DNA of 63,767 nucleotides, counting the filler, from Neolecta irregularis DAH-3 (lineage: Eukaryota): the NCBI GenBank assembly GCA_001929475.1. It is 14 parts of 14 records of this genome, joined end to end, with 100 filler letters (N's around TTAATTAATTAA, not from the genome) between each part and the next. Parts side by side here need not be neighbours in the genome. Positions count along the whole stretch, not along the records: positions 43,714 to 46,962 come from LXFE01003082.1; 13 more parts are not named here. One strand, written 5' to 3'. The notes beneath the pieces are model-generated. The model saw only the letters and a program-made list of their open reading frames with translations. It made no database searches and was not told the DNA's origin. The position numbers and the translations under genes were made by a program. Shown here piece by piece: positions 1,626 through 53,379 of the stretch. Numbering within the stretch: position 1 is the stretch's first letter; the number at the start of each line of letters is the position of its first letter.

Positions 1626-2135
1626 AACGGTTACACGAACGCGATCAGGTTACACAAGGCGCACTAGCGGATCTCGTGTCACATTCTATTATTTCGATAA
1701 CTGAAAACTCGCAAATGCTCCTCTAGTGATTGCAAGACTTTTCAAAATTTGTCAAAAGTAAAGGACGTGGTGTGGGAGGTGTTATCACACTCACTAGTCA
1801 TATTTTTAGTTATTTTGGAAATTTTGTAGATTAATAACAAGACATGATAACATAGGGGAGGGCTGCTAATCGGGTCGTAATTATTTTATTAATATAATCA
1901 AAAAACGGTATTTCGGGAAGGTTGAAGATTTGAGCTTTGACTACATGTGGAACAAAGTTTATTGTGGACGCTTCGGGGATCGGCAATCAGAGGAGGTTAC
2001 TGCCGTGGAGGTTGTTGATAAAGGGAAGAAATTTTTATCAGCGCGATCCCCTATTCGATCCTTTCCACGAGTTGCATCATTGATTCCCTAGAAGGCGAAA
2101 TATAAACCCGAACATTCCTGAATTATCACTCAGCC

Positions 2136-3181
2136 ATGGACTGTCCATTCTCTAAAATGGGAGAGCGACCAGAGAATGATCCACCGCTGACGCCACCGTT
2201 ATCAGAAGTTGATACCGGCATAAATAACATCGCAAACGAAGCAGTTTATGTGTTGCGACTCGAGTCACTAGCAATTGCTCATGTCGCTGACAATTTATCC
2301 TCGAATTCAGGCTCATTTGTACGGGCTGTACTTGCTATCTTTCAAGCGCATCGGGCCCGAGGGAAAGTTATTTTTACGGGTATGGGGAAAAGTGGAAAGA
2401 TTGCTCAGAAAATCGTTGCTACTTTCCTGAGCCTTGGAATTGAGACTACATTTTTGCATCCTACAGAAGCCCTCCACGGAGATCTTGGTACTGTGAGAGA
2501 GGTATACTGGGTATTTTAACTTTGATCTGATGACAGGGCGATATAGTCATTGCTTTGTCAAACAGCGGTTCAACTTCAGAGATTAACAATATAATACCGC
2601 TGATTTCCTCGAGGAATGTCCAAGTGATTTCAGTATGCTCTGAACCGTCTTCAACCCTCGTTCGAATTTCAAACATTGTGATAGACTCATCAATACCGCC
2701 TCCTCTCCAGGAGATAGCTGCATTTGGAGTCAATTCACCAACGACTTCAACAACAGTCCAATTAGCAATTGGAGATGCGCTCGCTCTAACATTGTCAGGC
2801 CTGATTCACTTGGACGTTTCAAAAACTTTCTCGGAAAATCATCCAGGAGGGCTCATCGGCAGGCGACTGATGGACGATATGATAAAATTTGCCGACCTAC
2901 CACGTATTAGTATCTTTGGAAGCTTGTTAGAGGCAATGGAGGCAAGCTTTATGCATTCTTCTAGGTGCGTGCTAGTACATGAGAATGATGTCATTCTGGG
3001 CATTGTATCGCCCGAAAGGATACGACAAAACTTTAGAAAAGAGGTAAAAGCAGGTGAGATTATGATAAGATTTGAGTGTCTTCCATGTCATGATGAAAGA
3101 TGTCTTGTCAGTGACTTTGACGGCCGTGGGATGGTCTTGTTGCATCGTTCTGGAGAGCGAGTCGGAATTTGGGGTAACTAA
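2136..3181 (+). CDS. KpsF/GutQ-like sugar-phosphate isomerase (SIS domain) with a degenerate CBS-like C-terminus; intron 2502-2536
   Basis: Motifs FTGMGKSGKIAQKIVATFLSLG, FLHPTEALHGDLG, LSNSGSTSE, PTTSTTVQLAIGDALA and F.ENHPGGLIG; a 35-nt GT-AG intron joins the two ORFs in frame. Confidence 0.88.
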
Positions 3182-4046: not shown

Positions 4047-5158
4047 ATGCGAGCTAGTACGTTTGCACTCGCCTTATTTTCTTCACTCGGCTCTGCTAGC
4101 GCTGTAGGACTACTTGGATTTTGTCTCGGGGCCACCGTACACTCAGTTGATCTATTTGTTGTTAAATTCCTTTAGCATGCAGACGGCACATGCAAGTCCC
4201 AAAATGATTTCGAATTAGATTTTGCTGCTCTGAAGCCATATACCAATACAGTACGGATTTACAGTTTATCGGATTGTAATACCTTGCAAAACATATTGCC
4301 AGCTCTCAAGACTTCAGAATTCAAAATTCTTCTCGGAATCTGGCCTACTGATGATAGTCACTTTGCCGCTGAAATTGCTGCTATGAAAAAATACCTTCCG
4401 ATGTATGGTGTCAATAACATTATCGGTATTACCATCGGATCTGAAGTATTGTATCGCAAGGATCTGACTGTCGACGCACTTGCTGCCAGGATCAACACTG
4501 TCAAATCTAGTCTTGCTGCACTGGGATTTGGCGGCGTTAAAATTGGGACCGCTGATTCCTGGAATATCCTCATAACTGACGCTGTGCGACCAGTAATCGA
4601 GGTTTCTGATCTACTCTTGGTGAATGCTTTCTCTTATTGGCAGGGGTTCGACTCGATCTTTATGGGTGGTCTTACATTAGGGAAGCACCAGCCGATATGG
4701 CGCATTCTTTTGTAGATGTATCCGTAATATCTCTACTTCAGGAACTGAGCGATCTAGGACATTGCACAATCTAAAACATTCATCGAGAGTGTCAAAGGTA
4801 ACAGCACCGGCTTTGACTTTTACGTTGGGGAAACTGGATGGTATCTTACTTCATGTCCGATTCGTGTATTGAGGAATCAGGCCAAGCGAAGGGGCGGCAT
4901 TTCAAAGCGCAACATGCAATCTCTCCATCGCTGCCTCCTACTGGCAGACCGCTATTTGTGGAATCAGAAAATGGGGAATAAATGTTTTTGTCTTTGAGGG
5001 TATGAATAAGTTTATTGTAGATGATTGACTCGATAGCTTTCGATGAACCCGGAAAGCCATCCGCTACAAGTGATACAGGCGTCCAAGTTGAAGGAGTAGA
5101 AGGTCACTGGGGAGTTTTCACTGTAGACCGCAAAGCCAAATACAATCTCACTTGTTAA
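4047..5158 (+). CDS. BGL2: Secreted GH17 glucan 1,3-beta-glucosidase/glucanosyltransferase, about 5 introns
   Basis: Signal peptide MRASTFALALF...; LGFCLGA, CKSQNDFE.DF, VRIYSLSDCNTLQ, ITIGSEVLYRKD, GTADSWN, NAFSYWQG, VGETGW, FVFE/AFDEP, EGHWGVF. Confidence 0.88.
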
Positions 5159-11857: not shown

Positions 11858-12510
<653 letters not shown>

Positions 12511-12789
12511 ATAGCAGTAGCACGAAGTACGGGGGGGGCAGTCTATACGGCCGGCGCGCGGCCAGAGCGTAAGACAGACAGACGATCGCTGCTGCATTGT
12601 TGTGGTGCCGCCGCCCGCTGGTGCGCCGTGTCTCGCTTCTCCACCGGGGCGTGTCTCGGCGCCGCCCCGCCCGCAGGCAGGCGAGGTTTTTAACCGCGGC
12701 GCTGCTGCTGTGCGCTCAGCCAGAAGACCTTTGCCGCTGCCCGCTGCCCTTCGCCGCTGCCCGCTGCCCTTCGCCGCTGCCCGCTGCCC

Positions 12790-13006
12790 ATGTCTGCCGC
12801 CTTTGCGTACAACGTAGGCCTGGCCTCGCCGGCCGCGCCCGGTGCGTGTGTGTGTGTGCCGCCGCTGACTGCAGTGTATGCCTTCCACCAGCAGCAGCAC
12901 CGCGGCCCGCACGCCTACTCGCCCGCCCCGCTCGCCTTTGCCTTTGCCGCGCCGTTTCTGCTCGACCCTGCGTATCAGTCCCGGCAGCCTCAGGCGGCTC
13001 AGGCTC
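12790..13006 (+). CDS. Possible 5' fragment of an unknown protein, truncated by the contig end
   Basis: ATG-initiated P/A/Q-rich ORF running into the gap; no recognisable domain. Confidence 0.25.
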
Positions 13007-26739: not shown

Positions 26740-28140
26740 TCATTTATAGGATTATAGATCGTTGATTGGTGAGCGCGGTCGTATGAGCTTTCAACTTCTG
26801 GGGTACTCAAGACTTAGAAACAGAAATAAGTTAATACAATTGGCTAGCTAACAATACAGAAAACCAGTCCTTTTGAAAGCTGCCAGCAGTAGGCTGGTAT
26901 CAAACGGAAAGAGGACAAATAGGATGGAGATAACGGAAACGGAAAACAACAGATATAAACCCGGGAGCGGCAGAAGGCTGCACAGCAAAATGGGGAAGGC
27001 CAGTATCTTTCTAGGCCAGCCAGAATGGTGTAGGGTGACGAAGGGAGGGGGAGGAAGGTTGGGCAGTTTCTCGTAGGAAATACTAATATTGTGTTGATTT
27101 TGTTGACCTTGCCACCCGTTGAAGCTCGAGTTCGAATAAGACAGGTTTTATACATCAATCTTTGATGGGATATGACGACGCTTTCTTTGCAAGAGAATCA
27201 GCCATCTGGTTCCCAGTAATACTCGCATGGCCGGGGCACCAAGCTATACTAAGCGATGTCGAAGGATTCTTCTCAAAGAAGTCAGTGACTGCTTTTCGAG
27301 CTCGACTCATTAATCTCTCCTCGAAGTGCTTTGGTGGATCCTCGAATATCTGTATTGCTGATACATTGTCTGAAAATAAATATACGGCTGATATATTGGT
27401 CATGGTGTTTGCTATGTCACTGGCGAGATTTATCGCTCCGATGACCGCTTCAATTTCGAAGTTACTGGAGTTCATACACAAAGCCCATTCTCGACTATCT
27501 TCAAGTTGGCCATTTTCATATACTGTTACACCGCATCCGCCTTTACCGGAAGCAGTCAGAGAGCCATCGCTGTAGACAACGAGTGTGCCTCTAGTAGCAG
27601 AAAGATTCTCAACCAACCTTTTATGCTTTATGACTGCCAAAGAACGCTCATAATCTGGTTGACATGGAAACATTGAGGTCTCTACCCGTTTCTCAGGCCA
27701 TTTGAAACTTTGAGCTAAAGAAGCGAAATCTCGACATGGAACATTATCACCTTGCAAGAAACCTAGTTTCCTCGAGATATATGGCAAGATGAGGGATGAA
27801 GATTTCCTCTCCCTTTGAACATTTTGGAAGAGGGTCGGTCGAAACAGTCGGATCTATAGGTCAGGACAACTCCAACCATGGCTGATACTGAAAATTTATA
27901 TCCCACAATCATATCGAGTTAGGTGTAATTGCCTAGCCCTCTTCACAGAACATATATAGAACTCATTTGGATCATCTGATTGGAAGATTCCTTAAGTAGG
28001 AATACCGGCACAGATTTGAACCATATCTGCAAGAATTCTGGGCGATAACATAAGGTTTGACTAGAAAATGCTCCATCAGGTTGAGGATCCATTAGTCTGC
28101 TGATCAGTTCAATTGCACATGACTTCGACAATTGCTTACT
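26740..28140 (-). mobile_element. Decayed LINE (Tad-like) retrotransposon: RNase H ORF 27155-27787 plus 3' UTR
   Basis: VYSDGS, E.EAV..A, LFSDNVSAI and WCPGHASITGNQMADSLAK are non-LTR RNase H motifs; upstream sequence is interrupted by stops. Confidence 0.8.
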
Positions 28141-32687: not shown

Positions 32688-32792
32688 NNNNNNNNNNNNN
32701 NNNNNNNNNNNNNNNNNNNNNNNNNNNNNNNTTAATTAATTAANNNNNNNNNNNNNNNNNNNNNNNNNNNNNNNNNNNNNNNNNNNNCTGTC

Positions 32793-35489
32793 ATGTCCCC
32801 CTCCGCCCCAACGCCCTCCAGCGCCCTCACAAACAAACCCGCGTCTGCCTCTTCCTCCCTCTACCAGTCTTGTCTCCAGCTGCGTGATCGCCTCTACAGC
32901 GTCCCTGGCCTCGAGCCCTACCTGGACCACGCCGAATCCTCAGACTCGGCAAACCCCTCCCTTGTTTCCATGGGCTCCAACGGCGACCCCGTCTCCCAGC
33001 TCTGGAACTGCTTTCGTCTCGGCACAAGCCTCTGTGTCCTCTTCAATGCTCTCCGCCCCGAATCCCCCCTCAAAATAAACCCAGAGCCCGCTGCAGCCCC
33101 TAATACAAACGCGTGCAAAGCTAGCGTCTACCACTTCTTGATTGCTTGCAAAAAGGAGCTCGGCTGCAACGACGAAGATCTATTCACCATCACCCAGTTA
33201 TATCAGGACGACACAAACGGCTTTGTCAAAGTACCTCTTCATGCACTCCTATTTCTTACCCAAAGGTCACAAAAACCGTCGCTCTCGTCTTGGATATACT
33301 CCAGGAACGCGATTTGCTGGTCAAAACAGAGAGGTCAATGTCAATATCCACCCAAGAAGAAAAACCAAAAGATAATCGCGCAAAGGTTCTCACAGAGCTA
33401 CTCCAGACCGAACGAAAATACGTAGAGGATATGGAAATCTTGCAGGTTTTCCCCTCGACCCATCCAAAAATTGATCTGTTCAGAATTATATGTGTGAATT
33501 GTCTGCCGCCGAAGTCCTTCCTGCAGATACTATCCATTCCCTCTTCTCAAACTTGAACGTTTTGGTCGACTTTCAGCGGCGCTTTCTCATTGGCGTGGAG
33601 GGAACTTCCTCAATGCCGCCAGAGCAACAGCGAATCGGCCTTTTGTTCACTCAGATGGAAGAAGGATTCAGTGTTTACGAGCCCTTCTGCGCAAATTACG
33701 CGTATGCTGCAGACCTGGCACTTGAAGAAACCCCAAAATTAGCAAAATTGGCTCATCTCGTCGAACCTTCTTATGAGCTCCCATCCCTTCTCATCAAACC
33801 GATCCAGCGCATCTGCAAATATCCTCTGCTTTTGAAAGTAACAGTTGCTCAAAAATCACTGGTTAATGCTCAGGAACTTTTAAAGTACAGCGATGTCTCC
33901 CATCCGTATTATTCCGAACTTCAAACTGGTATGGAAAGCATAAAGCGCGTGGCAGATCGCGTCAACGAACGTCGTCGGAAACAAGAAAACGAGCAAGTTG
34001 TGATGGACTTGGAACGTCGTGTTGAAGATTGGAAAGGCCACTCGATCGCGGGTTTCGGCTCGCTTCTCCTCGAAGACTGCTTCAATGTCATCAAAGGCGA
34101 CGTTGAGCGGGAATACCATGTTTATCTATTCGAAAGGATACTTCTTTGTTGCAAGGAAGTCGGTTCCCAAAAGAAGACTCCCAAGAGCATGTCCAAGAAA
34201 CCAAAGAAGCGTCTAGGCCTGCAGTTAAAAGGGCGCATCTTTATCAACAATATCACAGAAATTGTACCCTCTTCCGGCAATGGTGTGGTCTACTTTGTAT
34301 TAGTACTCACACTGCAGGCGTTCATACTTTGCAGGTGTATTGGCGCGGAGATATGGAACAGGAATATTTCTGTCTCCGCTGCAAAAATGAGGAAAATCTC
34401 AATCAATGGCATTCCCTGCTATCTCGACTAATCGAAGAGGCCAGAAAGGTACGAAAAGGTCGTCCCAGCGATGCAGGTCTACCACACACTACACACCCGC
34501 GTCACCCTTCGAATGTACAACTAGCGTCCTTGCAAAACAATGTTCTCCATTACCGCAACAAATCGAGTGACGAGGGTTCATTCCCCAGCGATGTTGAAAG
34601 CGTCGAGGATGAAGGCGATACACTTATGAATCATTCAGTTCCATCGACTAGTTATAGATCTCGTTCGACAACTGCAGATGTCATGTTGTCTCATCGATCC
34701 CGCTTTCCCATCACACCAAATCCATCGTCCTTTCCCATGCGAGCCATAAATGGAACTGCCGATTATCAGAACTCTCACTTCTCTCCGATGGTTGATTCTC
34801 CTGCATTTTCTGTGGCGCGAGGAAATTCTTCGTTTGGTAGCAGTTATCCATTTCCTCGTCAAACTACACCTGTTCCGGGTCCCGAAGAGCCTCAGCGGTA
34901 CACCGCTCCACCAATGGGACGAACAGTGTCGAAAAACAGCAACAGCGGAACAATGGGCCCGCCATCTCGTCCTGGGAGTGCCCAAAATCGTTTACGCTCT
35001 GCAAGCAGTCCAAACATTCATCATGTGCCCCTTGGCAATCGACCCGCTGTTGCAATTCCTCCTGTACCTCCTACACCCGCTTCCTTTGGCCCATGCCGAA
35101 ATGATGCAAATTCTCCTGGATCAACCTATGCATCATCACCCAGACCTATGACTTCTGCATCAAGTTCAACAGCTGCTTCTAATCAACCGATTACTCCGAT
35201 CCATCCAAATGGACCCAGTCACCTCAAAGTTAAAGTCAATTATCTGGATGACAAATTTTGTATCGTTATAGCACCGGGAGTTGGCTACAATGAACTTCTC
35301 GGACGCGTCGAAAAGAAAATTCGGCTCTGCGGTGGCGATCGCATCGGTCATTTGCGAATGAAATATGTGGACGAAGACGGCGATTTCATCACCATCAACT
35401 CTGACGAAGACGTTCAAATGGCTATTGAATCCCGCGCCAATTGTCTTCCTGTCGACCATGCCTCCACAATCAACCTCTTCGTCAGTTAA
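32793..35489 (+). CDS. CDC24: Cdc42 guanine-nucleotide exchange factor (CH-DH-PH-PB1)
   Basis: DPVSQLWNCFRLG..LC.LFNAL, LY.DDTNGFVKV, ELLQTERKYVEDME, LIKPIQRICKYPLLL, YLFERILLCCKE, PB1 MKYVDEDGDFITINSDEDV; S. pombe ortholog scd1. Confidence 0.95.
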
Positions 35490-36051
35490 CCACCCACCTC
35501 TGCTCGACAAAAATCTACAAAGAAAGAAGAGTTATATATGTAGGCTTTAATCATTCGCAGCGTCTTTTCCAAGCATTTACGATCGGTCGCACTTGTCCCC
35601 ATCTTTTTCACCTTGACATGATTATTGCCTCTTTGTTAGATCACTTTTTTACTTGTTTTGGGAATGGATATGGTTAAAGGTGTCAGTCATTAGAGGTTTT
35701 TCGTTTCCGTTCTTTACATTTGAAACCTCTTCTCCGTTTTCTTTTCTTCGTTCTTTTCAAAGCTTTGAGGCTGCGTCTCGTTTTTTATGTATATACCGGA
35801 TCTAGAACAATTTCCATTTTTTGCTGTTTCAAATATGTATGCTTACCAGATAGTATTACGTAAACTTAAAAGATCGCCTCAGCTTTAAACCTCTTCCAAT
35901 TTCTTATTTTGATTCCATCGAAATTGAGGGGTTTCGTTTTGTTTGGGGTATTATGTTGTGTTGACAAAGTTGCCTAGCTCCTTTTGTTCAACTTTGAAAC
36001 GTATAATAAAACCCTTGATTTTCGGCTTGTCACTGTCCCACAAACTTGCTC

Positions 36052-37056
36052 ATGTCATTCTCGCTAAAATCTATTGGCAATACGCGTTTCGCATTTTTGG
36101 GCCGGGGAAGCCAGTTGGCTGAATTTTCTACAGTGGATGAAGGAACCTTTACTATTTCAAATCTTGTCATTTCATCTGACCAAAATCAAACTCAGAGTCT
36201 CTGGCTTTTGTTGAATCACCTTTTTCTCTACAAGATCGACTGCAAGGTCTCGACTGATGGGAAACCATCAAAGCCTCGAGAGATTATTATCGCTGTTGGA
36301 GATAGGGACAAGACTACTAATCCAGTCTTGTCACTGCTCGGAAATCTTGACATAGCTGAATCACGCGGGCAGTCTCCCTTGCTATTTGCTATAGGTTTTG
36401 CCGAGTTTTGGCAGTGGGATATCGGCGGCAAAGAAGGTTGGAGAAAGTCCTCTGCTTTACCAAATCCTCTTCGGAATATCTTTACAGGTCCTTTCAGACA
36501 TCCAAGAAGACCGACGGCACCTATGGGATTACTCTACCAAAGATTCATTCCATCTTTAAATGAGACATTCTCGCTTCAAGTAGCAAATCCAGCTGCCGAT
36601 ATCGAGAATTTCCACGAATGGATGAATAATCCACGCGTAGTTGAATTTTGGGGTGAAAAGGGATCAAAAGAGAGACATTTGGAATATTTGACCAAAGTTA
36701 CGGCAGATAGACATTGTATACCAACCTTTGGATATTTTAACGGGACGCCATTTGCATATTTCGAGATATATTGGGCTAAAGAAGACCATGTCAGTCCATA
36801 CGCCAATGCAAATGACTGGGATCGAGGATGGCATATTCTTGTTGGCAATGAAAAGTTTCGAGGATCACATCGAGTTGGGGTTTGGATTACCAGTATAACG
36901 CATTATTTGTTTTTAGATGACCCTCGAACGCAACGAGTGATGTTGGAACCACGAGCAGATAATCTCAAGATCCATCGGTATTTGCAACAATATGGCTATG
37001 CAAAGGAAAAGGAATTTGATTTTCCGCATAAAAGAGCTGCTTTAATGACTATTTCG
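36052..37056 (+). CDS. Siderophore-biosynthesis N5-hydroxyornithine acyltransferase (AlcB/Acetyltransf_8; SidF/SidL/Sib3-like), 3' end lost in the gap
   Basis: HEWMNNPRV..FWGE, PFAYFEIYWAKED, DRGWH.LVG, HYLFLDDPRTQRVMLEPRADN, EFDFPHKRAALM. Confidence 0.88.
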
Positions 37057-38035
37057 NNNNNNNNNNNNNNNNNNNNNNNNNNNNNNNNNNNNNNNNNNNN
37101 TTAATTAATTAANNNNNNNNNNNNNNNNNNNNNNNNNNNNNNNNNNNNNNNNNNNNAGACCGATCCAATGACCTAGTTCTTCAAAGTTAAAACGTAGAAT
37201 GCGTAGTTGCTTTTGGCTGACCACGTGCTGGAGATATAAGTTTGCAGAATTTTCACAGTTGCAACTTTATTTTGATTTGAAAAAAGCGAATGTGATTTTT
37301 CCATCTGTCTTTTATCCAACTTGCCCAACCATCCAACCACCAAACTGCCTACCAAAGCACTCTCTGGGCAGGCAGTTCATATCTCTTCGGCGGGTGTGAG
37401 GCTTAGTGATCTGCCGCCGGACAACTCTCCGCAGGCTTGCAAATCAATCAACCGGTTCAATATGTTGGTTGAATTGATTGACAAGTATCAATTCAATTCA
37501 AACAATCTGCAGTCTCCAGATTTGTCAATCAATTCAAGTAGTTACTTTCACTCGAAGTAGCTGCCACACTATCAATAAACCAACCTAAGTCCATGAGCGA
37601 CAAAAAGGAACACCTGAACGCTCACAAACAACACAGTATATTAATATAGCATAATAGTATCAGAATTACCTACCAGGAAAACCCTTTCATTCGCCGTTTC
37701 TAAAATTCGCATTACATCAAAACACCAACCATTCGAGTACGAGATAGAGTCTTGGGATTTGATGCCGGATTCTGTTTCCCTTAGCATAGTTCTTTCCTTT
37801 TCTTTTGATTAACTTTATGATGATATAAATGATCGTGGCATTCTGCGGGCAAGTATTTAGTTTACAGTTTTCTCTCCCTCTACATTAAGAAATAGAACGG
37901 CCGAGAATCTCAAAGAATACTCGCCAGTTGCGCCTTTTTTACGAAACTCAGAAACACAAACTCGAGGTACAGAACTTCCTATTCAACCCGTAGCATCCCC
38001 TGCGTGCATCTATACACCTTATCCCTCTGTTCCTT

Positions 38036-40958: not shown

Positions 40959-43613
40959 TTGGATTGCACCAAAGTCTGCATAGTTCGATTAGAAGACCTA
41001 CCTGCTTACTGTGGAATCTGAACCTGTCAGAATAGAATTCTTGTTCAACTTTTGTCAGTTTTTCTTAGTTAAGAAAAGAAGGACCTAAATCTTACTTGTG
41101 GCATTAGTATCAGGAATTGACCATCATATCAAGTTTATCTGAAGTTATTGGGACCGTCCCTATTATACTGAGTTCAGTAAGTTTAGGTAACTTCACATAA
41201 CTCGGTTAGTCATTATATTGCATCTGAGTTATCTTGCCTACACTGCTATTTTAACTTTCTTTTTCAGGCGGCTAATGTGTACAACAGGGTGGATCTTGGA
41301 GGAAGGGGGTAATTCGAGTTTGTAGGAAATCACTGATAGTTTTTTAGTGATTTGAAATGGGCTGATATAGCATTGCTGTAATTTCAGCGAGAGCAACTCC
41401 TGCTTACCATCCGGGATTCACATAAGGTTTCCATCAACAGGAAAACTTTGTCTTTGACTTCAAATTCCTTGTGTCACCTATGCTTATCTGCTGATGCTTT
41501 CTGTGATAGTTGCACCTTTTTCAAGCTCCCTTGGGCCTTTTCGAAGATATCGTGGAAATGTTGAGAGAAGTTCTTCACCGATGGCTCCATATGCGAAAAT
41601 TCAAAATCCTTTGGTGCTCTTGGAATGTATCTGATATCCGCTTCAAAAGGTGCACAATTCATTGATGCAGACATTGATGAATTATAGGAGAACTCTGCTA
41701 TCCCAAGAAGCTTTACCCAATCCTGGTCATCTTTGATGAACAACCTTAGGTAATCTTCCACAACTCAATTCATCAGTTCTGAAAGTCTGTCGGTCTGAGG
41801 AGGCCAGTGATAAAATCCATGGTAATATCCATCCATTTCAAATTGGGTAAGTCTAATGGATTTAGGAGTCCTAACTTCCCACGAGTATCTGCCTTAACTA
41901 GTGTGCATTGCGAGCATGAGTTGCAGAAGCTGTAACTTGTACTGACATCTTCTTCTAATAAAATCGTTGTGGCATTTTGTCTTGGGGACTGGATGTCCAC
42001 TCGACAGATCGTCATGGTAAGCCTGGAGTAATACTAATCTGCATCCTTTGGGGACACAAATTCAATTGTTCCAGAGTAGCAACTCATCATCCAACTTGAA
42101 ATCCAGGATAATCCTTCAGTTTTGAAGTTCCATTAGAATTGAGAACCACTCACTATCTTTCAACTCCTGGTTAACTTGACTTAGCCACTTAGAGTCTTCC
42201 TGCAGTCTGACAGCTTGACATTCAAACCTCGGCTTACATGAAAATGTGTCAGATACCAGGTTTAGTGCCCCTGGTAAGTATTCCACCTCAAACTCCGGGA
42301 ACTCCGCCATAAACACTAGGATTCGGATTTGCTTTGGGTTTAACTTCTGCTGTTTCAGTATATACTGCAACTCTTGATGATCTGTTCAAATTTTAAATTT
42401 TGTCCCATGAAGGTATGGTCAAAATTTCTCAAGTGCCTTTTTAATCGCGAATTGCTCCTTATCATGGGTCGTCCAATTCCATTGATACTTTTTGAGTTTT
42501 TTTGACATAGACATCACCAGATGTTCTTGACGATCCTCCCCTAGCTGAGATAGTACAGTGCTAATTCCTATACCAGAAGCATCACAAGTGAGTATTGATG
42601 GTTTCTCATAGTCGTGTTGCACTAATACAGGGGTCCAGGTAATATTAACCTTTAGAGTTTCAAATGCCAGTTCTTGATCAACCCCCCATGTCCAGGGTTT
42701 ATCTTTCTGAGTAAGCTCTGATCAAGGTGCACCGATCATCACAAAGTCACTGACAAACCCTTGATAGTATCCAGCAAGGCCCAAGAACCCTTGGACCTCT
42801 TTGATGGTTTTCTGGGCTGGCCAGTCCTTAATTGCTGAAACCTTGGCTTCTTGTACCTCAACTCCTTGTGCTGATATTGTGAAACCGACCCATTCAATAG
42901 TCTGTTTCTCGAACTCACATTTCTTGAGTTTCACGAAAAGTTGCTGACTCCTTAATCTTTCCAGAACATTATTTAAATCTATGTTATGCTGCTCTTTACT
43001 TGGTGAAAAAACAGATATTGCAGCAGTAATCGAGTCCATTCAATGCGAGGTTCATCATTTGGATAAATGTCGCCGGAGCATTTCCAAGTCCAAATGGTAG
43101 TACTAACCATTCAAAATGACCAATAGGGGTCTTGAAGCCACTCAAAGATATAGAATTTGTCTCAATTCTTTGCTGATAATATCCAGATGCAAAGTCGAGT
43201 TTCAAAAACTATCATACATTGTCAATGCAATCAATCATCTCATCGATCCTTGGCATTGCTGTTGCATTCTTTTCAGTATTGCTGTTCAAATCGTGGTAAT
43301 CAACACACATCCATAAGTCACCAGATTTCTTCTTTGTAAACCTGCAGACTGCTCCATACTGTGACGAACTTGGTCTGATAAATATTCTCTCTACCAGATC
43401 TTTGATTTCTGTTCTTAACCATTTTTCTTCTAACACTGACAATCTAGGCATTGGGCGATTTATTGGTCATCTCACCAGGTTAATGAGGAGGATTTCATGG
43501 TCTTTATCAAGTTTCAGGGGAAATAGGAACTGTTCATTGTAGACGTTCTTATTCACATGCAGTACACTCTCCATTTCTGGTGAAATGGAAGCCTGCTGTT
43601 CACTGGTATTTAC
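40959..43613 (-). mobile_element. Decayed Ty3/gypsy LTR-retrotransposon pol (RT-RNase H-integrase)
   Basis: FIRPSSSQYGA, LWMCVDYHDLN, KLDFASGYYQ, FKTPIGHFEWLVLPFGLGNAPATF, LFVKLKKCEF, FLGLAGYY, TCDASGIGI, ITMDFITGL, AEFSYNSS, HPVVHISRLK; many stops and frameshifts. Confidence 0.93.
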
Positions 43614-43938
43614 NNNNNNNNNNNNNNNNNNNNNNNNNNNNNNNNNNNNNNNNNNNNTTAATTAATTAANNNNNNNNNNNNNNNNNNNNNNNNNNNNNNN
43701 NNNNNNNNNNNNNCGGGCCAGCGGGAAGAGTGAGGCCAGGCCAGACTTGGGGGGGTGGCGCCGGCGATAGAAGAACACGCGGGCGGCAGGCGGACCAGTA
43801 GCCAGCGGGGCGGCAAACAACCGCTAATTGGTTCTGAGGGAGGACCATCCACTCCACCAGGCTTGCTTTGCCATACTATACTGCACCCATCCTCGCGTCT
43901 CTGTAGTTGCTGCGGGGCGCCGAGCCGGACTACGCGCA

Positions 43939-45584
43939 ATGCAGCTCTCGACGCGGATCCTGGCCTTTGTGCTGTCGCCCTGGCTGATTATGCTGGCGAC
44001 GACGGCACTCTTTGGGGCGCTGTATCTGCAAGTGCTGGCTGCGTCTCGCTCCGAGCTGACCTGCGGCAGGGGCTACTTCCGCCCACGGCTGCATTTCCCG
44101 TACCCGTCGCATCCCGCGGAGCTGTTCTGGCGGCATCCGTGCCGCCGCCGCCGCCGCTTCAGAGCCGATCCGCTGGCAGAGCTGCGCCGCGCCCGCGCCT
44201 GTGTCGCGCACCCGGTGTTCTGGACAGACATGGCCGAGCCGTCGCCGCTGACGGTCTCGCTGGGCGACGACGTCTCGCTGCGCGCCTTCTTCTGCCACAG
44301 CCAGGACGCGCTCTCGTGGGACGCCGCGCTGCAGCACGTCTGGCCCGCCGTCTTTGCCGACTCGGGCTTCGGCAGGGCTGCGTTCTATGCCGCAAGCAGG
44401 CGGTGTCTGGCCGGCGCGTTCAGTCCGCCGCGCGTGCTGCTGTACCGCCGCGCAGTCGCCAGTCACATCGCAAGTGCGCTCGCCGCCCTCGAGGCCTGCG
44501 GGGATGTCGCGGCCTGGATAGACCGGCTGGTGCTGCGTATCCTCGTGTCGGTCGTCTTCGGCGACGGCGAACAGCGGCTGGCCGAGCTGACTCGTCTGAG
44601 CGGCGACATCGCGGCCAGCATCGCACGCAGCCGCAAGCTCAAGTCACTGGCCCGGGACAAGGCGCGCTTCGACAGCCTGGTGTCCAGCATCTTGAACGAG
44701 AGACTCGCAGATCTCGAGAAAGCTCCCCGAGACGATTCCTACGTCCAGTACCTTGTTGCATCATCGCAAAAACTTCCCGAACCGGCAACGGCACCGTCCG
44801 CTGTGCCGTCCCCAGCAGACATCAATGTCTCTCCCATCCTTTCAAAATCCTCTCCTGAAAACGACCAACGAACCCTCGTGGACAAAGACATACCCACGCA
44901 CCTTCTCGTTACAATTCTCCAGTCACGCCTATTGTTGGCAAATTTATCTACATGGCACTTGCTCAATCCAAGCACCCCGATCCCAACTCTCCAGCGCTCA
45001 AAGTCGCCGCTATTCCTGCTGAAGAAAGCAATGAGGCATACCCTTCTCTCGAAAACTCTCGTCCCAAAGGGCACCCTGTTGGCAGTAAGTCCAGCATACG
45101 AANNNNNNNNNNTCAGCGCTCAAAGTCGCCGCTATTCCTGCTGAAGAAAGCAATGAGACATACCCTTCTCTCGAAAACTCTCGTCCCAAAGGGCACCCTG
45201 TTGGCAGTAAGTCCAGCATACGAACATAGCGAGCGCACCAACATCTTTCTGCCTGCAAGCAGACATAAACGCACCAGCAGTGTTCCCTCTACCGCTAGTA
45301 TCGCATCCCCAAACTCGACACCTATGGGAAGTAGGGATCATTTACTGAACCCTAACAGCTCGAGACAAGTTGGAGATAACCCAGTAAATCAACTTGTCCT
45401 TCGACGATATCCCATGGAGTATCTTTTTTTGGAAATTGTTCAGATTCTCGGAGACACAGTCAATCGAAAATTCGATGTGGCTACCAATGGAGACGGAATC
45501 CGGTATGCTGATTCGAAAGGATTATTCCTTGCCTGGCCTGAAAACCAAGTATTTATTAAACAAAAAGCTGATGCTGAGGTTTAA
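43939..45584 (+). CDS. Highly divergent CYP51-like cytochrome P450-fold protein lacking the heme-Cys motif (about 507 aa once the duplicated 45114-45224 segment is merged)
   Basis: N-terminal TM; DPLAEL..., PVF, TVSLG, LSWDAA...PAVF, RDKARFDSLVSSILNER, DSYVQYL, DKDIPTHLLVTILQS...LSTWHLL and LVPKGTLLAVSP align by eye to CYP51; no FxxGxxxC. Confidence 0.6.
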
Positions 45585-45753
45585 CTTTTCTGGGGGGGTT
45601 CACGGTGGAGTTTAGCATTTCGTAACTTATTTCTCTTTTTTTTATTATTGATGGATATGTTCGTTAGGATTTTTAGGGTTGCATACATTATTCCTTTGTC
45701 CTTAGAACCGTTAAATACAGTGATTAAATCCCTTTATATATTATGGACGTTCT

Positions 45754-46962
45754 CTATACTTGGCTTTCTGTCTTGATTTCAGGCGTGTCTAATAGCGAGC
45801 TTTCAGCAGGTGGAATCGTAGATAAATTCTCAACACCAGAAACAAGCTCATCCATTCCCTTTGGTGTAGGCGAGCCGATTACATCAATTTGTCGAGGGAT
45901 ATCAGGTACAGGTGATCCTCTGGTCCTTCTTGGCCGATTAGCTGCAGGTGCTTTACGACGGTCTCGTAGTTGCATTCCTGGTGTTAGTAGTTGTGATTCG
46001 GAAGGAGAGGTGGAATCCCATAGTCCATCAAACGTTGATGATACGGCTGCTGTATATGCGTCCCGCTCTTTAAGTAAGAGCTTCTTGCAATGAAGAATCT
46101 TCTCCAAGATTCCTAGTCGTTGTGTTGTGCAATATTGTTCTATCGGAAGAAACTTTTCAGGCTGCGAAAGTCCTGACAGATGGCTCATTACTCCGCTTAT
46201 TATTGCACGGTCCGAATACCCTCCTTCCATAACACTAAGAATTTTCGAATTTGTCTTTTCGGCCAGAATGACCGAATCGCGAGTAAACCTGTCGTAGAAC
46301 AAAGTTGGGACATTGACCTTGTGTCGTTGCATTGCCGGTGTTTCATGTTCTGAAGCATCAAAACCTGCAGACAAGACTACCAAAGTCTTTCCCTTTGTGT
46401 GCTGACTAAGAAATTTAAACGCGTGGGTGAATAATACAGAATATTTGTCCTGATAAAGCTTATCGAATTCTTCTTGCAATTTGTACCCTTCGAGGTGAAC
46501 GTTCCAAATATATTGACCGTGTCCATCCAGACACAGACTCGCCCCAAATATTTTCTCCCGGTCGCCGTTTTCGCATGGGAAACTCTCGATATCGTGAAGA
46601 GAGAAATATCCATATTTAATATCCTTTTCAGATTCGTTTAATCGGTATACAATTTCTTGACTTCCGTCCCCGTGATGCAAATCGAAATCCAAAATCGCAA
46701 TCCTCGTAACGCCGTAATTTTCAACCGCATACGCCGAACCAATCATTATATTATTAATCAGACAAAATCCGCTGGGATAGTTTGAAGTGCAGTGGTGCCC
46801 TGGGGGTCGGATATTAACGTGTACTTTATCATATTTGGATTCGTTCGAGTAAAGCGCGTCGATTCCATCGTAGACTCCGCCCATACAGGCTTTCAAGGCT
46901 TCTTTGCTTTCTGCAGCAAGATAGAGATCGCCGGTATGATATTTCTCCGACGGTAATTCAAC
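45754..46962 (-). CDS. HOS3: Histone deacetylase Hos3, 5' end lost in the gap
   Basis: GDLYL, IRPPGHHC...PSGFCLINN, ILDFDLHHGDGSQEI, YFSLHDIESFPCENGD, HGQYIWNVHL, SAGFDASEHE..MQRHKVNVP, MEGGYSDRA. Confidence 0.92.
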   Translation of the reverse strand, partial: VELPSEKYHTGDLYLAAESKEALKACMGGVYDGIDALYSNESKYDKVHVNIRPPGHHCTSNYPSGFCLINNIMIGSAYAVENYGVTRIAILDFDLHHGDGSQEIVYRLNESEKDIKYGYFSLHDIESFPCENGDREKIFGASLCLDGHGQYIWNVHLEGYKLQEEFDKLYQDKYSVLFTHAFKFLSQHTKGKTLVVLSAGFDASEHETPAMQRHKVNVPTLFYDRFTRDSVILAEKTNSKILSVMEGGYSDRAIISGVMSHLSGLSQPEKFLPIEQYCTTQRLGILEKILHCKKLLLKERDAYTAAVSSTFDGLWDSTSPSESQLLTPGMQLRDRRKAPAANRPRRTRGSPVPDIPRQIDVIGSPTPKGMDELVSGVENLSTIPPAESSLLDTPEIKTESQV

Positions 46963-47062: not shown

Positions 47063-49400
47063 CCGCCATCACCAGCGAGCCGGACGAGTATCTCAACGGC
47101 GGCTATACCCTCCGCCAGGGCATCCACGGCAGGGAAACGCAGCTCTTCGTCGCCATCACAATGTACAACGAAGACGAAATCCTCTTCACCCGCACAATGC
47201 ACGGCGTCATGCGAAACGTCGCCCACCTCTGCTCCCGTTCAAAAAGCCGCGTCTGGGGCAAACAGGGCTGGAAGAAAATAGTCGTTTGCATCGTTGCAGA
47301 CGGCCGCAGAAAGGTCCATCCAAGGGTCCTAGACGTCCTTGCTGCCATGGGCGTCTATCAAGACGGCATCGCCAAGAATCTCGTCAATGGCCGCGAAGTC
47401 AAGGCCCATTTGTATGAGGTACAACCGCTTTTCACACCTTTTTCTTACAATAGTACACAACCCAAGTCTCTCTTGACCCAGACTTGAAATTCAAGGGCGC
47501 GGAACGCGGAATCGTCCCTGTGCAAGTCATGTTTTGTCTCAAGGAGAAGAACGCAAAGAAACTAAACAGTCACAGATGGTTCTTTAAAGCTTTTGCTCCC
47601 GTATTGAAACCAAACGTTTGCGTTCTCCTCGACGTAGGAACACGTCCCGGAGAAAAATCAATTTATCATCTATGGAAAGCTTTTGATAACAATTCCAATG
47701 TTGCTGGTGCTTGTGGCGAAATCAAGGCTATGAAAGGAAAAGCTTGGGTCGGCTTGTTGAATCCCCTTGTTGCTTCTCAAAACTTTGAGTACAAGGTATT
47801 CCTACTCTTTCCTACATACATTGCTTATTCTCTAGATGTCAAACATCCTTGATAAGCCTTTTGAAAGCGTTTTTGGATATATCTCTGTACTGCCCGGTGC
47901 TTTCTCAGCATATCGCTATATCGCTCTACAGGATGATAGCACCGGTCGAGGTCCCCTCGATTCCTATTTCAAAGGGGAGACTCTCCATGGCTCAAGCGCA
48001 GATATTTTCACCTCAAACATGTATCTTGCTGAAGATCGTATTCTCTGTTGGGAGCTAGTTGCCAAACGAGGCGAAAAATGGGTACTAAAATACGTTCCTG
48101 CTGCCCATGGTGAAACGGATGTTCCAGGTACTCTTATATTCAAGCTTGTACTAATGAATTAGATGCAGTTGCAGAATTCATTAGTCAACGTCGTCGGTGG
48201 CTAAATGGAGCCTTCTTCGCCGCCGTCTACGCCTTGTCTCATTTCCAACAAATTTGGCACACAGACCATTCCTTTATGCGAAAAATCGCTTTGCACATTG
48301 AATTCTTTTATCAATTGTGGGGTTTAATGTTCACTTTTGTATCCTTGGCGAATTTCTACCTTGCTTTTTATTTCACTGGTGCTTCGATCGCTCGATTAGA
48401 TCCTTTTGGCCATGGATGGGGTTTACGAAGTTTTGTCTTTATGAAGTATATTTGTGTACTGTTGACTGCTGGTCAATTCATCTTATCTATGGGTAATCGA
48501 CCCCAAGGGTATTCTCTCCGTTCTCATTAGCTCACACTCACTTTTTTCTTTTTAGGACTCGTTCAATGTTTGTCACTAGCATGGTCGTCTACGGGTGTAT
48601 TATGCTTTACACCATATTCTGCGCATTTTACCTCATGATATATTCACTCCAACGCGCAATCGTTGACAATAATATCGGGTTTGGAAATAACCCCTTCACC
48701 GATATGGTATTTTCAGCAAGTGCAACATATGGCATATATTTTCTCATGTCGATTCTATACTTGGATCCATGGCACATGCTCTCCAGTTTTCCTCAATATA
48801 TAATTCTCCTTCCATCATACGTCTGCACACTACAAATCTACGCGTTTTGCAACACGTATATCGTCCCTTTTTTTCTGTAGTAATTTAATGTCTAGGCACG
48901 ATGTAAGTTGGGGCACAAAAGGCGATACAACAATTCATACGGATCTAGGAGCAGCCGTCGTAAAGGGAGATATCGTTGAAATTGAAATGCCATTCGAACA
49001 ACACGATATTGATACGACGTACAATGAAGCCCTTGCAAATCTCAGGGAACGTAAAAAATTGGACGATGTCCCACGAAACGAAGGTCAAATACAAGAAGAT
49101 TACTATCGAGAGATCAGAACCCGTCTTGTACTCATTTGGCTCATTGCAAATGGAACTCTAGCTATGGCTGTCTCTGAGCTTTTCGATCGTGGCTTTAATG
49201 GAGGTGTTATTTACCTCAAAATTACGATATGGATGGTCGTTGCCCTCGCTTTCTTTCGCGCTCTCGGAAGTTTATTCTTCTTGCTAATTAACCTTGTTCA
49301 AAGAATCGGACGATCGAAATATGTTCAGCCTAATCTTCCGCAATTTAAACGCCCAAAGTTTACTGAATTGAAGTTGGAAAAATTTACTGAGAAAGCTTAA
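47063..49400 (+). CDS. Chitin synthase, division 1 (probably class II), 5' end lost in the gap
   Basis: [77 protein letters not shown]. Confidence 0.95.
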
Positions 49401-51031: not shown

Positions 51032-53379
51032 ATGTATCAGGAAGTCTTACAAGTGGGCGAGTGTGATATAATCACCCCTACAAACCAAATATATTTCTAT
51101 ACCGCACTTGTCCCGGGCCTAACCCATTATGGTCAAAAGAAACAAGCAAAGCTCCAGCTCATTTTTACTTCCTCCCTCGCCAATTGTTCAACAACCGGGC
51201 ATTGCAGGTATATTCGTTCCTTCCTTTGAATCCTTTCATCGAAATGCCGCTCAACACTTCCGAAATATCGATACCGCCCCTTTTGAATCTAATACGGAGC
51301 CATATTGGCAGTGCAGATAAATTTGGACAGGCAGCATTAAAAGCAGTGGATCCACTTCTTTCGAAAGCACATGAACTCAGCCTTCAACTTCCCCTCGATC
51401 ACCCCCTCCATCGTCAGGTTTCCCTTCACAAAGGATGGGTTCATGAAATCCAAGGGATCGGTACAGAATCTGCCTGGGCAAAGAAGAAAATCTACGAAAC
51501 TGTTGCTGAACTGAACTCCTGGAGCAACGACTGGAGCTATGAAAACCTAAATATCGGAAAAACCATACATCGCATCATTTCAATAAGAAAGGACCTTGAA
51601 ATGTTCAATATCAATGGGCTAAAGGGCTATGTCCGTGGTAGGTTATATTTCAACTCGGCTCTATACTTATTGATAGCTGCACAGGCCGAAAGCAATCTGA
51701 CACCCCCAGCTCTTCTAATGACGTCGTTGCTGTTGTATATCCTTCCACCGTTGGCTCAGCTTAACCGTCTTCTCATTCTGTGGACTTCCCGTTGTGAAGT
51801 TAGCAAATTATACCCCATTTTTATGGACAGGCTTCAGTTCTGCGAAAGTGCGCCGGACGACATAAACGCTTTTTTCAATGCCGCTAAAGCAGCTGGTTGT
51901 TATTTGGATGATATGTTAGATTTAACGATGGAGGAACTTCCCAGCGAATGGCTCGATCGAATGGACCTTGTTGATGAAAAAGTGGACGCCGCTTTGAAAA
52001 CAATCGAAAATGAAGAGATCAAAATTTCCTCATCTAGTCCGATGTTCGACCTGCCATTTGAGGGTGACTCAATAGAAGTCAAACAAGAACAGAGCAATGT
52101 TACCGAAAAGTACAACCATGGCTTCAATTTGGGCTCTCCGGTTTCTATACCTCAAACCCCTCTCCCTCAATTAGGGAACAGCAGTCCTTGTACTTCTCCG
52201 CCATTGTCCTCACCAACAGCAAATCGTCGCCGAAGGCTTTATACCCCTGAATACGAGGGCCTTTCTGAAGACGATATCGACATCGCTGCCTCCAGAGAAA
52301 ACAAGGAGCCCGCCATGAAATCGGAGGAACTCCACTCCGACCTGAGAAGCAACAACATTTTACCTAGTCGCAACTTGTCCAAACACTATATTGGGCTCGC
52401 TTCGTACTCTGATATCACTGGCTCTAAACGTAAGCCCCGAAGGGATGCCACTGCTTCAACCTTTCAAAGCAATGGGGCGGATTCCATTTTTGATGAGAGT
52501 CGATCGTCGGACTCAGCGTCAGAACCCGAGGTTGAAGCAACCAAAAAAGTCGCAACTCCTATTACTCAAACCATTCCTAACCAAATTGAGTCAACTTCAA
52601 ATGGAACGCGACCCCGAAGAGTGACGAATCCAATTGGTTCCGCCACCGCACAAAGAGCTGCCGTGAGACTTGCGAACAAGAAATCGTCGCCTGCAATGTT
52701 TATTCCATCTCTAACGAGGACTAGAACACCAATCCAGAAAAGCGCCGCCTTTAAAGCATTGCAAAAGACGTCTCTGGATCGTAAAATTAGCAAAATTGTC
52801 GAGGAATTACCAGTCGCTATGAAGCTCACTCGAGAAGATCAGTCTCCTCCTGGGGACTTAGAAGACGGTATCTATCAATTACATCATAAAATCTTGGGAC
52901 CAACTTCTCTTTACTGCCGAGTTCTCAGTGATCGAGTCATGGTTAGAGTTGGAGGAGGATGGTCAGACCTAGAGAGCTATCTCCTCGATTTCGCAACTCA
53001 CCATTCACGAGCGAACATTGAATTCAATCACTCTGGAGCCGAAGCCACCCAATCTACTTCTCGAAATCAGACAAGTCGTCCGGGGAGTCGATTGACGAGA
53101 CCCGAATCCCGGTTTAGCGTTCGTTGTGCAACACCAGACACTTTTGATGGCAGGCCTGATACGCCCGTTACGCCGCATGCGCCTCTAGGATTGGCTGGAC
53201 CTCAAAGTAAGCTTTTTGACCAAACTAGTCCGGAGAAACTTGCTTGGGTTGAAGATGTTGCGACTAAATTGAGACAGAATAAGAAACTGATACCCAGCGC
53301 TGGGCCAACAAGGGTATACGCTAAGCAGCAGCAATCCTTAGCCGGGACCGGAAGAAATACGCCCAGTAGATATGTTTAA
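51032..53379 (+). CDS. GAS2/GAR-domain (microtubule-binding) protein; start uncertain, probable intron 51638-51676
   Basis: LYCRVLSDRVMVRVGGGWSDLESYL is the GAS2 signature; flanked by S/P/R-rich disordered regions. Confidence 0.8.

Follow-up and report, generated by a model that had tools for sequence, protein, structure and literature searches.

The gene under study lies on the plus strand of a contig of Neolecta irregularis DAH-3 (LXFE01003082.1, positions 43714-46962 of the window, the 63,767-nucleotide stretch of joined genome records that was analysed); its ATG is at 43939 and its stop codon ends at 45584. It is convergent with a histone deacetylase gene on the minus strand (45754-46884; Pfam Hist_deacetyl, E 5e-43), and a single contig from sequencing run X2 covers the 3′ ends of both. 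Since the first 66 bases of the genomic contig (43714-43779) are identical to the ends of two others (C4427 and C3864), the true upstream neighbour is uncertain. Elsewhere in the window are genes for a SIS-domain protein (2106-3181), a GH17 glucanase (4176-4715), a RhoGEF-PH-PB1 protein (32736-35489), which we take to be Cdc24/Scd1-like, a GNAT acetyltransferase (36019-37104), a chitin synthase (47161-49400) and a GAS2-domain protein (51244-53379). Retroelement remnants, comprising a reverse transcriptase fragment (E 8.5e-6, below the cut-off) and RNase H, lie on the minus strand at 42722-43039 and 27155-27853. In codons 1-240 of the studied gene GC3 is 0.84-0.90, and in codons 241-480 it drops to 0.38-0.56; a second GC-rich island of the window is found at 12001-13000.

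The locus had been described, from the DNA alone, as an uninterrupted open reading frame of about 507 amino acids. The start, the stop and the number of codons stand, but only after correction of the assembly, and the product is shorter. As assembled, the frame ends after 401 codons. A run of 10 N at 45103-45112 lies inside the gene and is flanked by a duplicated overlap of 112 bp with 2 mismatches; no other of the 29 N runs in the window is so flanked. A contig of public run X1, possibly the source sample and informative here for the join itself, reads across the gap and skips 122 bases. The gap, the overlap and the join together identify an assembly artefact; collapsing the overlap gives 1524 bases, or 507 unspliced codons. 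The public model NEOLI_005037 (P0001, a hypothetical protein of 440 residues) begins at an internal Met and carries a 29-residue duplication from the artefact.

The run X2 contig also skips 44028-44069, an in-frame, phase 2 interval of 42 nt with GC..AG ends. Among 828 windows of 42 nt in the 5′ part of the gene, this is the one window where donor, branch and acceptor signals occur together, and its removal shortens the distance between the SPW and PRL motifs from 35 residues to 21, as in all 8 homologues bearing both motifs. These three observations show that a GC-AG intron is removed and that the product has 493 residues, not 507. Positions 44809-45236 are outside X2 coverage; homologues align there with no further intron. 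Run X2 is labelled ‘DNA?’ and the run listing names no RNA run for the gene; from the clean intron skip we infer that X2 is RNA, which would mean that the gene is expressed. Alternatively, it is possible that the skip reflects genomic loss of the intron in another isolate. Of five variants listed for the coding region, 3 change the amino acid and 2 do not; none introduces a stop or shifts the frame. The proposed N-terminal membrane anchor is borne out by a hydrophobic segment starting at residue 7 (best 19-residue Kyte-Doolittle mean 2.13). The parts of the gene are collected in Table 1.

Table 1. Parts of the studied gene, in window coordinates
Feature	Position	Strand	Basis and remarks
Exon 1	43939..44027	+	start codon; membrane anchor, residues ~7-25 (43957-44013); homologues share the SPW-containing hydrophobic segment
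GC-AG intron	44028..44069	+	42 nt, phase 2, canonical branch point; X2 skip and homologue spacing
Exon 2	44070..45584	+	P450-fold body to stop; includes the assembly artefact
B′/SRS1 region and C helix	44314..44421	+	S-W-D...W...F-G, 6 invariant columns; Y-x-x-x-R as WxxxR equivalent
Low-complexity H-I insertion	44746..44895	+	spacing against CYP51s; pLDDT under 50
I helix	44899..44955	+	invariant His to invariant Trp; long helix 209-245 in model
Short link replacing J/J′/K, beta1-4, beta2/beta1-3	44956..45102	+	stretch best matched by HMM to CYP51
Assembly artefact	45103..45224	.	10 N, then the 112 bp before them repeated
Ser/Thr-rich segment in place of K′-meander	45225..45390	+	no PER motif; one basophilic R-x-x-S site
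Cys-pocket equivalent and L helix	45393..45470	+	invariant Arg 45402-45404; putative axial Tyr 45408-45410; Tyr at +4

A search for orthologues had been proposed as a check on the gene, and relatives were found. With the Neolecta protein as query, phmmer against 1.84 billion representatives returned 8 relatives (E 5e-23 to 1.5e-14, identity 24-35%), and a profile search added 3 further clusters, making 12 at 90% identity with the query included. The named members, from Neolecta, Pneumocystis murina, P. carinii, P. wakefieldiae, P. canis and Savitreella phatthalungensis, cover three classes of the Taphrinomycotina. The other 8 of the 12 clusters are without an organism name; in an 11-row tree they group with Savitreella, apart from Neolecta and Pneumocystis, on a branch that is open and carries a long-branch warning. 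The comparison of features below uses 11 members, one per cluster; it excludes the P. canis protein (P0005), whose model includes a MUS81-like winged-helix domain, probably through gene-model fusion with the neighbouring gene. Another Pneumocystis-type member, P0013, is full-length (584 residues) on a contig of 2119 bases, a size that would fit a transcript.

The gene belongs to a conserved family of fungal P450-fold proteins that lack both the Cys and the K helix. Between P. murina and P. carinii, the one species pair compared, the family protein is 93.3% identical (545/584) and Erg11 93.0% (477/513); identity on a par with Erg11 argues for strong constraint and, with the spread over three classes, upholds the earlier suggestion of selection for the protein. 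The Neolecta protein has the longest branch (2.61) and is the most divergent member; of the 45 columns in which exactly 10 of the 11 members agree, it is the exception in 16.

The family has largely escaped annotation. Pfam p450 matches none of 9 family proteins and neither half of the Neolecta gene; the UniRef name of the P. murina protein, ‘Cytochrome P450’, indicates that the fold was picked up once by automatic annotation. No paralogue was found in the Neolecta genome. A word-indexed search with the single sequence matched NEOLI_005037 itself and nothing else, and with the family profile it returned 7 proteins and missed known members, which makes its sensitivity too low for absence to be concluded from it. 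No named member from Schizosaccharomyces or Saitoella surfaced, in searches where the exhaustive one used the divergent Neolecta query and 8 of the 12 resulting clusters are nameless; a characterised S. pombe orthologue, so far undetected, is possible and would reduce the novelty. No description of the family was found in a literature search confined largely to freely available papers without their supplements, and a search for four family accession tags gave no paper. A metagenome scan for gene neighbourhoods yielded 119 pattern matches, of which none was confirmed.

The fold was predicted with AF2 from a 20-row family alignment, on the 440-residue public model rather than the 493-residue product. 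The model has a pTM of 0.62 and a mean pLDDT of 57; helices D to I, the L helix and the C-terminus are confident, and residues 262-381 fall under 50. Prediction from the single sequence gave no usable fold (pLDDT 36.8). In a structural search of 48161 representative chains, 95 had a Z of at least 8 and none a Z of 5-8. The best match was Acanthamoeba CYP51 (Z 20.2, rmsd 3.8, 282 aligned residues), and CYP51s make up 4 of the best 8. All 50 structural rows listed are P450s, if OxyA, FrazP2 and CalO2 are, as we assume, P450s too. By Foldseek alone the best E was 1.3e-3, so that no match reached 1e-3; among its top 1000 chains, CYP51s took 8 of the best 9 places and 41 of the 50 listed entries, many of them redundant yeast structures. 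ESM features assigned p450 in 30 of 30 matches for two family members. On the evidence of the predicted model, the P450 fold of the family can be regarded as established, as the sequence-only reading had expected.

The same reading had called the protein CYP51-like, and here the result is divided. When the family profile was compared with PDB sequences, the best 17 of 28 matches were sterol 14-demethylases (E 1.4e-7 to 2.4e-4), the best other named P450 having an E of 0.72; a second such search was similar. As noted above, CYP51s also have the top Z scores. However, the gap from the top score to CYP120A1, CYP725A4, CYP90B1 and CYP204A3 is about 1 Z or less, identity in the structural alignments to CYP51 is 10-16%, and comparisons with fungal CYP51 are not significant. 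The family HMM reached at most 8.0 bits against fungal CYP51s (108 of 117 scored), the score against the genome's own Erg11 was -7 bits, and neither the profile comparison with the Erg11 exons of that genome nor that with alignments of fungal CYP51 reached significance. With the two insertions trimmed, the profile-profile comparison with fungal CYP51 gave an E of 0.014 and a probability of 3% over 300 collinear columns; in global mode there was no match. In phmmer, the N-terminal piece had a best E of 0.96 against PDB sequences, and 30 P450 loci of the Neolecta genome, cut into six-frame pieces, scored at most 7.5 bits (E 0.075) with the family HMM. Descent from CYP51 is likely, and the weakness of the signal against fungal CYP51 means that the sterol part of the reading below can be held with moderate confidence.

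A separate canonical ERG11, proposed as a further check, is present in the genome on contig C3817; it encodes 513 residues after removal of three introns of 37-39 nt and retains AGQHTS, ExxR and FGAGRHRC. Across the whole genome, Pfam p450 matches 47 times at the level of exons rather than genes, spread over about 30 contigs; this greatly exceeds the 2-3 CYPs that the accessible part of PMC3505482 gives for Taphrinomycotina. There are three loci of the ERG4/ERG24 family (C3254, C2858 and C1382; L037-L044), the third of which could be a sterol delta-7 reductase, with a bearing on Neolecta's sterol type.

The Cys thiolate is essential for P450 monooxygenase chemistry. At the putative axial position of the family, Tyr is found in 10 of 11 members and His in one, and no member has a Cys within 15 residues on either side; this agrees with the earlier proposal that the heme Cys is replaced, apparently by Tyr, in a peptide that does begin at 45393. 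The register of Tyr against Cys was set from a Gly at -6 (10/11, not Neolecta), an Arg at -2 and a helix starting 3 residues after the Tyr in the model, and the profile-profile alignment with CYP51 places a gap at this site. No FxxGxxxCxG-like motif occurs in the six frames of 43714-46962, leaving no room there for a hidden FxxGxxxC exon; the one string of GxRxCxG type, in another plus-strand frame, is missing the aromatic residue.

Elsewhere, too, the catalytic apparatus is gone. The AGQHT of the I helix is replaced in 11/11 by Q/S-[T/S]-x-[L/I/M]-[L/I], with loss of the acid-alcohol pair; the replacement had been noted, and the residues first named for it (LQSRL) are in a register that is uncertain by one or two residues. 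In fungal CYP51s the ExxR motif keeps its E and R without exception (118/118), and this motif had been thought to be substituted in the Neolecta protein. That claim fails: from the Trp at the end of the I helix to the Arg/Lys of beta1-4 there are 21-24 residues in 11/11 members and 58-68 in 115 of the 118 CYP51s (those with both motifs matched), and a distance shorter by about 40 residues indicates that the J, J′ and K helices, and ExxR with them, were deleted rather than mutated. The K′-meander stretch has become Ser/Thr-rich (60 residues in Neolecta, 82-145 in homologues; S+T 0.22-0.33), and PER has gone. At least one R-x-x-S/T occurs in this segment in 11/11 members; such sites would be expected by chance in Ser/Thr-rich segments. 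The H-I loop has 52-75 residues in the 11 members against 23-24 in the 96 CYP51s matched, and CYP51 has an F-G loop longer by about 12-15 residues. Thus Cys, AGxxT, ExxR and PER are all missing; erasure of catalytic motifs had been stated earlier for the single gene. With the thiolate and the proton-relay residues both lost, P450 chemistry rules out O2 activation of the monooxygenase kind, and the family protein, to judge from its residues, cannot be a monooxygenase. By the definitions in the accessible text of PMC9635630, the family has none of the four Cyp51 motifs (0/4).

The heme site itself has changed in other respects. The Gly at -4 is Trp in 9/11 and Lys or Val in the others, the Gly at -6 is missing in Neolecta, and small I-helix residues over the heme have given way to larger ones. 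Two B′-region tyrosines of CYP51 (118/118 and 117/118), which we take to be heme-propionate contacts, are L/V/T and F in the family.

What remains lies mainly around the cavity. In the cavity-lining segments, 37/151 columns are conserved in 10 or more of the 11 members, as against 15/187 in the remaining core columns (Fisher p 3e-5), where the segments (B′, C, I, the beta1-4 region, the Cys loop and L) have hand-drawn borders and are also structural core. The B′/SRS1 segment is collinear with SRS1 of CYP51 in the profile-profile alignment; clustering of invariants in SRS1 alone is not significant, being reached by 1228 of 5000 shuffles. Invariant His, Asp, Ser and Arg lie inside the cavity-lining segments; fungal CYP51s have a His near the invariant I-helix one in 65/118. 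Ten columns at or above 10/11 belong to the N-terminal YY.PRL...P motifs. Three basic positions, presumably the heme-propionate contacts of P450s and invariant at the equivalent sites in 118 fungal CYP51s, also persist: the Arg at -2 in 11/11, the beta1-4 Arg in 10/11 (Lys in Neolecta, 45022-45024) and the C-helix position as Arg in 7 and Lys in 2 of 11. At +4 from the axial site is His in 10/11 and Tyr in Neolecta. Conservation of 3 of 4 heme-site positions in at least 10/11 has a chance of 0.013 at the core base rate of 52/338, a rough test because the sites were picked from general P450 anatomy and the sequences are related.

The reading that best accommodates these results, to which we give an even chance, is that the family protein is a regulator anchored in the ER, derived from CYP51, free of heme and able to bind sterol. 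An old paralogue, probably of CYP51/ERG11, would have been kept in Taphrinomycotina as a non-catalytic P450-fold protein, placed in the ER as Erg11 is. The absence of the K-helix/meander clamp would leave no heme held, and the retained cavity (B′/SRS1, C, I, beta1-4, L) may bind a sterol or similar lipid. The two Ser/Thr-rich loops, with their basophilic kinase-type sites, could then relay the state of the ligand to partner proteins; the overall role would be that of a sterol sensor or regulatory scaffold. With CYP51/Erg11 the family shares the membrane anchor, the proline-rich segment and, in collinear order, the A-I, beta1-4, L and C-terminal elements; it differs from them in the lost Cys, AGxxT, ExxR, PER and J/K helices, the shorter F-G loop and the two low-complexity segments. 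One fungal CYP51 paralogue, Fusarium CYP51C, is likewise reported to be without demethylase function (cited in the accessible text of PMC7157627); unlike the present proteins, it is grouped in the part of PMC9635630 consulted with CYP51s having all four motifs, and the family lies far below the 30% identity filter given there.

The chief alternative is that the protein does hold heme, through the Tyr (or His), as a heme sensor, buffer or peroxide-handling centre and not as a monooxygenase; we regard this as a tentative possibility. A single transition, TGY to TAY, would exchange thiolate for phenolate. That the axial site is solely Tyr or His and that the three basic contacts are kept favours this alternative over a heme-free protein, and the His (in one member Tyr) at +4 and the conservation figure given above, rough as it is, point the same way. 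There are also precedents elsewhere. Bacterial non-Cys CYPs can bind heme via Ser (accessible text of PMC11703216), and these ncCYP A-T proteins are, like the present family, P450 homologues whose axial residue is not Cys; they are, however, 880 bacterial proteins found by BLAST, in 20 families, and the main text of that paper has tyrosine once (in connection with catalase) and ‘fung’ never, a minor Tyr subfamily being possible in its figure or supplement. Yeast Sfh5, as described in the part of PMC7462610 available, shows a fungal fold put to a new use, heme binding through Tyr/His, in a paralogue that has lost its family's activity; its fold is that of Sec14, so that it is a functional analogy that bears on heme binding alone. 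Against heme stand the bulky residues at the heme site, including the Trp that mostly occupies -4, the loss of both B′ tyrosines, the absent Gly at -6 in Neolecta with a register set indirectly, and the deletion or replacement of the clamps of the Cys pocket (K helix, PER). This loss is larger than that in EryCII, which is heme-less and yet keeps I, J, K, K′ and L in the published description as far as it was accessible. If heme is held, the proteins may be CYP51-derived, tyrosinate-ligated P450-fold hemoproteins lacking J/K and the ERR triad, perhaps serving as an ER heme/sterol sensor kept in the reduced genomes of Pneumocystis; this fuller version is equally tentative.

It is unlikely, though conceivable, that the protein has no ligand of its own and is the dedicated activator or chaperone subunit of one enzyme, whether Erg11, another sterol enzyme or a glycosyltransferase. 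This is the known role of the Cys-less P450 folds EryCII, AknT and DesVIII (PDGAF), which are, like the family protein, not active P450s (accessible parts of PMC3391682 and PMC10054333); EryCII, Cys-less and heme-less, acts as a scaffold (PMC3391682, same part), and the conserved surface motifs YY.PRL...P at the N-terminus could serve as a binding face. Yet the EryCII-type proteins are, in those accounts, bacterial, work with a glycosyltransferase, keep J/K/K′/L and lose C/C′, whereas the present family is eukaryotic and membrane-anchored, keeps C, has lost J/K and has no known partner. The interaction helix added in EryCII has no evident counterpart, no partner gene is adjacent (the contig's other gene is the convergent histone deacetylase), and conservation is centred on the cavity.

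Less probable still is a cofactor-free enzyme of isomerase, cyclase or hydrolase type in the old P450 cavity, using the I-helix His and the SRS1 Ser/Asp: the invariant polar residues would suit it, but the His may be an inheritance from CYP51, and the model shows no readable catalytic arrangement. Finally, decay to a pseudogene, or an artefact produced by the assembly or by overlooking an exon that carries the Cys, might be suspected from the gap inside the gene, the divergence of the Neolecta copy and the 3 non-synonymous changes among 5 variants, but this is scarcely credible and is largely refuted by the existence of the family, since the frame is open once the artefact is removed, the intron signals are intact, the variants hold no stop or frameshift, the six frames have no Cys motif and identical losses are found in 11/11 members from three classes. 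The core of the sequence-only reading thus holds, more strongly than it was put, although it overlooked the intron, the artefact, the helix deletion and the family.

The sterol-binding regulator that we prefer would belong to a part of fungal biology that is already unusual. In the accessible text of PMC2878339 and PMC3648899, the main sterol is cholesterol in Pneumocystis and brassicasterol in Taphrinales, not ergosterol (Neolecta is not covered in that of PMC2878339). Since its named carriers belong to lineages reported to use cholesterol or brassicasterol, the family is a testable candidate for a part in this sterol biology. In Pneumocystis it is as conserved as Erg11 even though CYP61 is reported lost from P. 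carinii in the part of PMC3505482 seen. The Cys-less P450-fold proteins of the literature compared here are bacterial, and this is a fungal family; it is invisible to P450 censuses based on motifs or Pfam, and the K helix, normally held to be indispensable, is deleted in it. What is at stake is whether it represents a eukaryotic P450 pseudoenzyme or a natural Tyr-ligated P450 fold; in either case the family points to an unstudied job, non-enzymatic or heme-binding.
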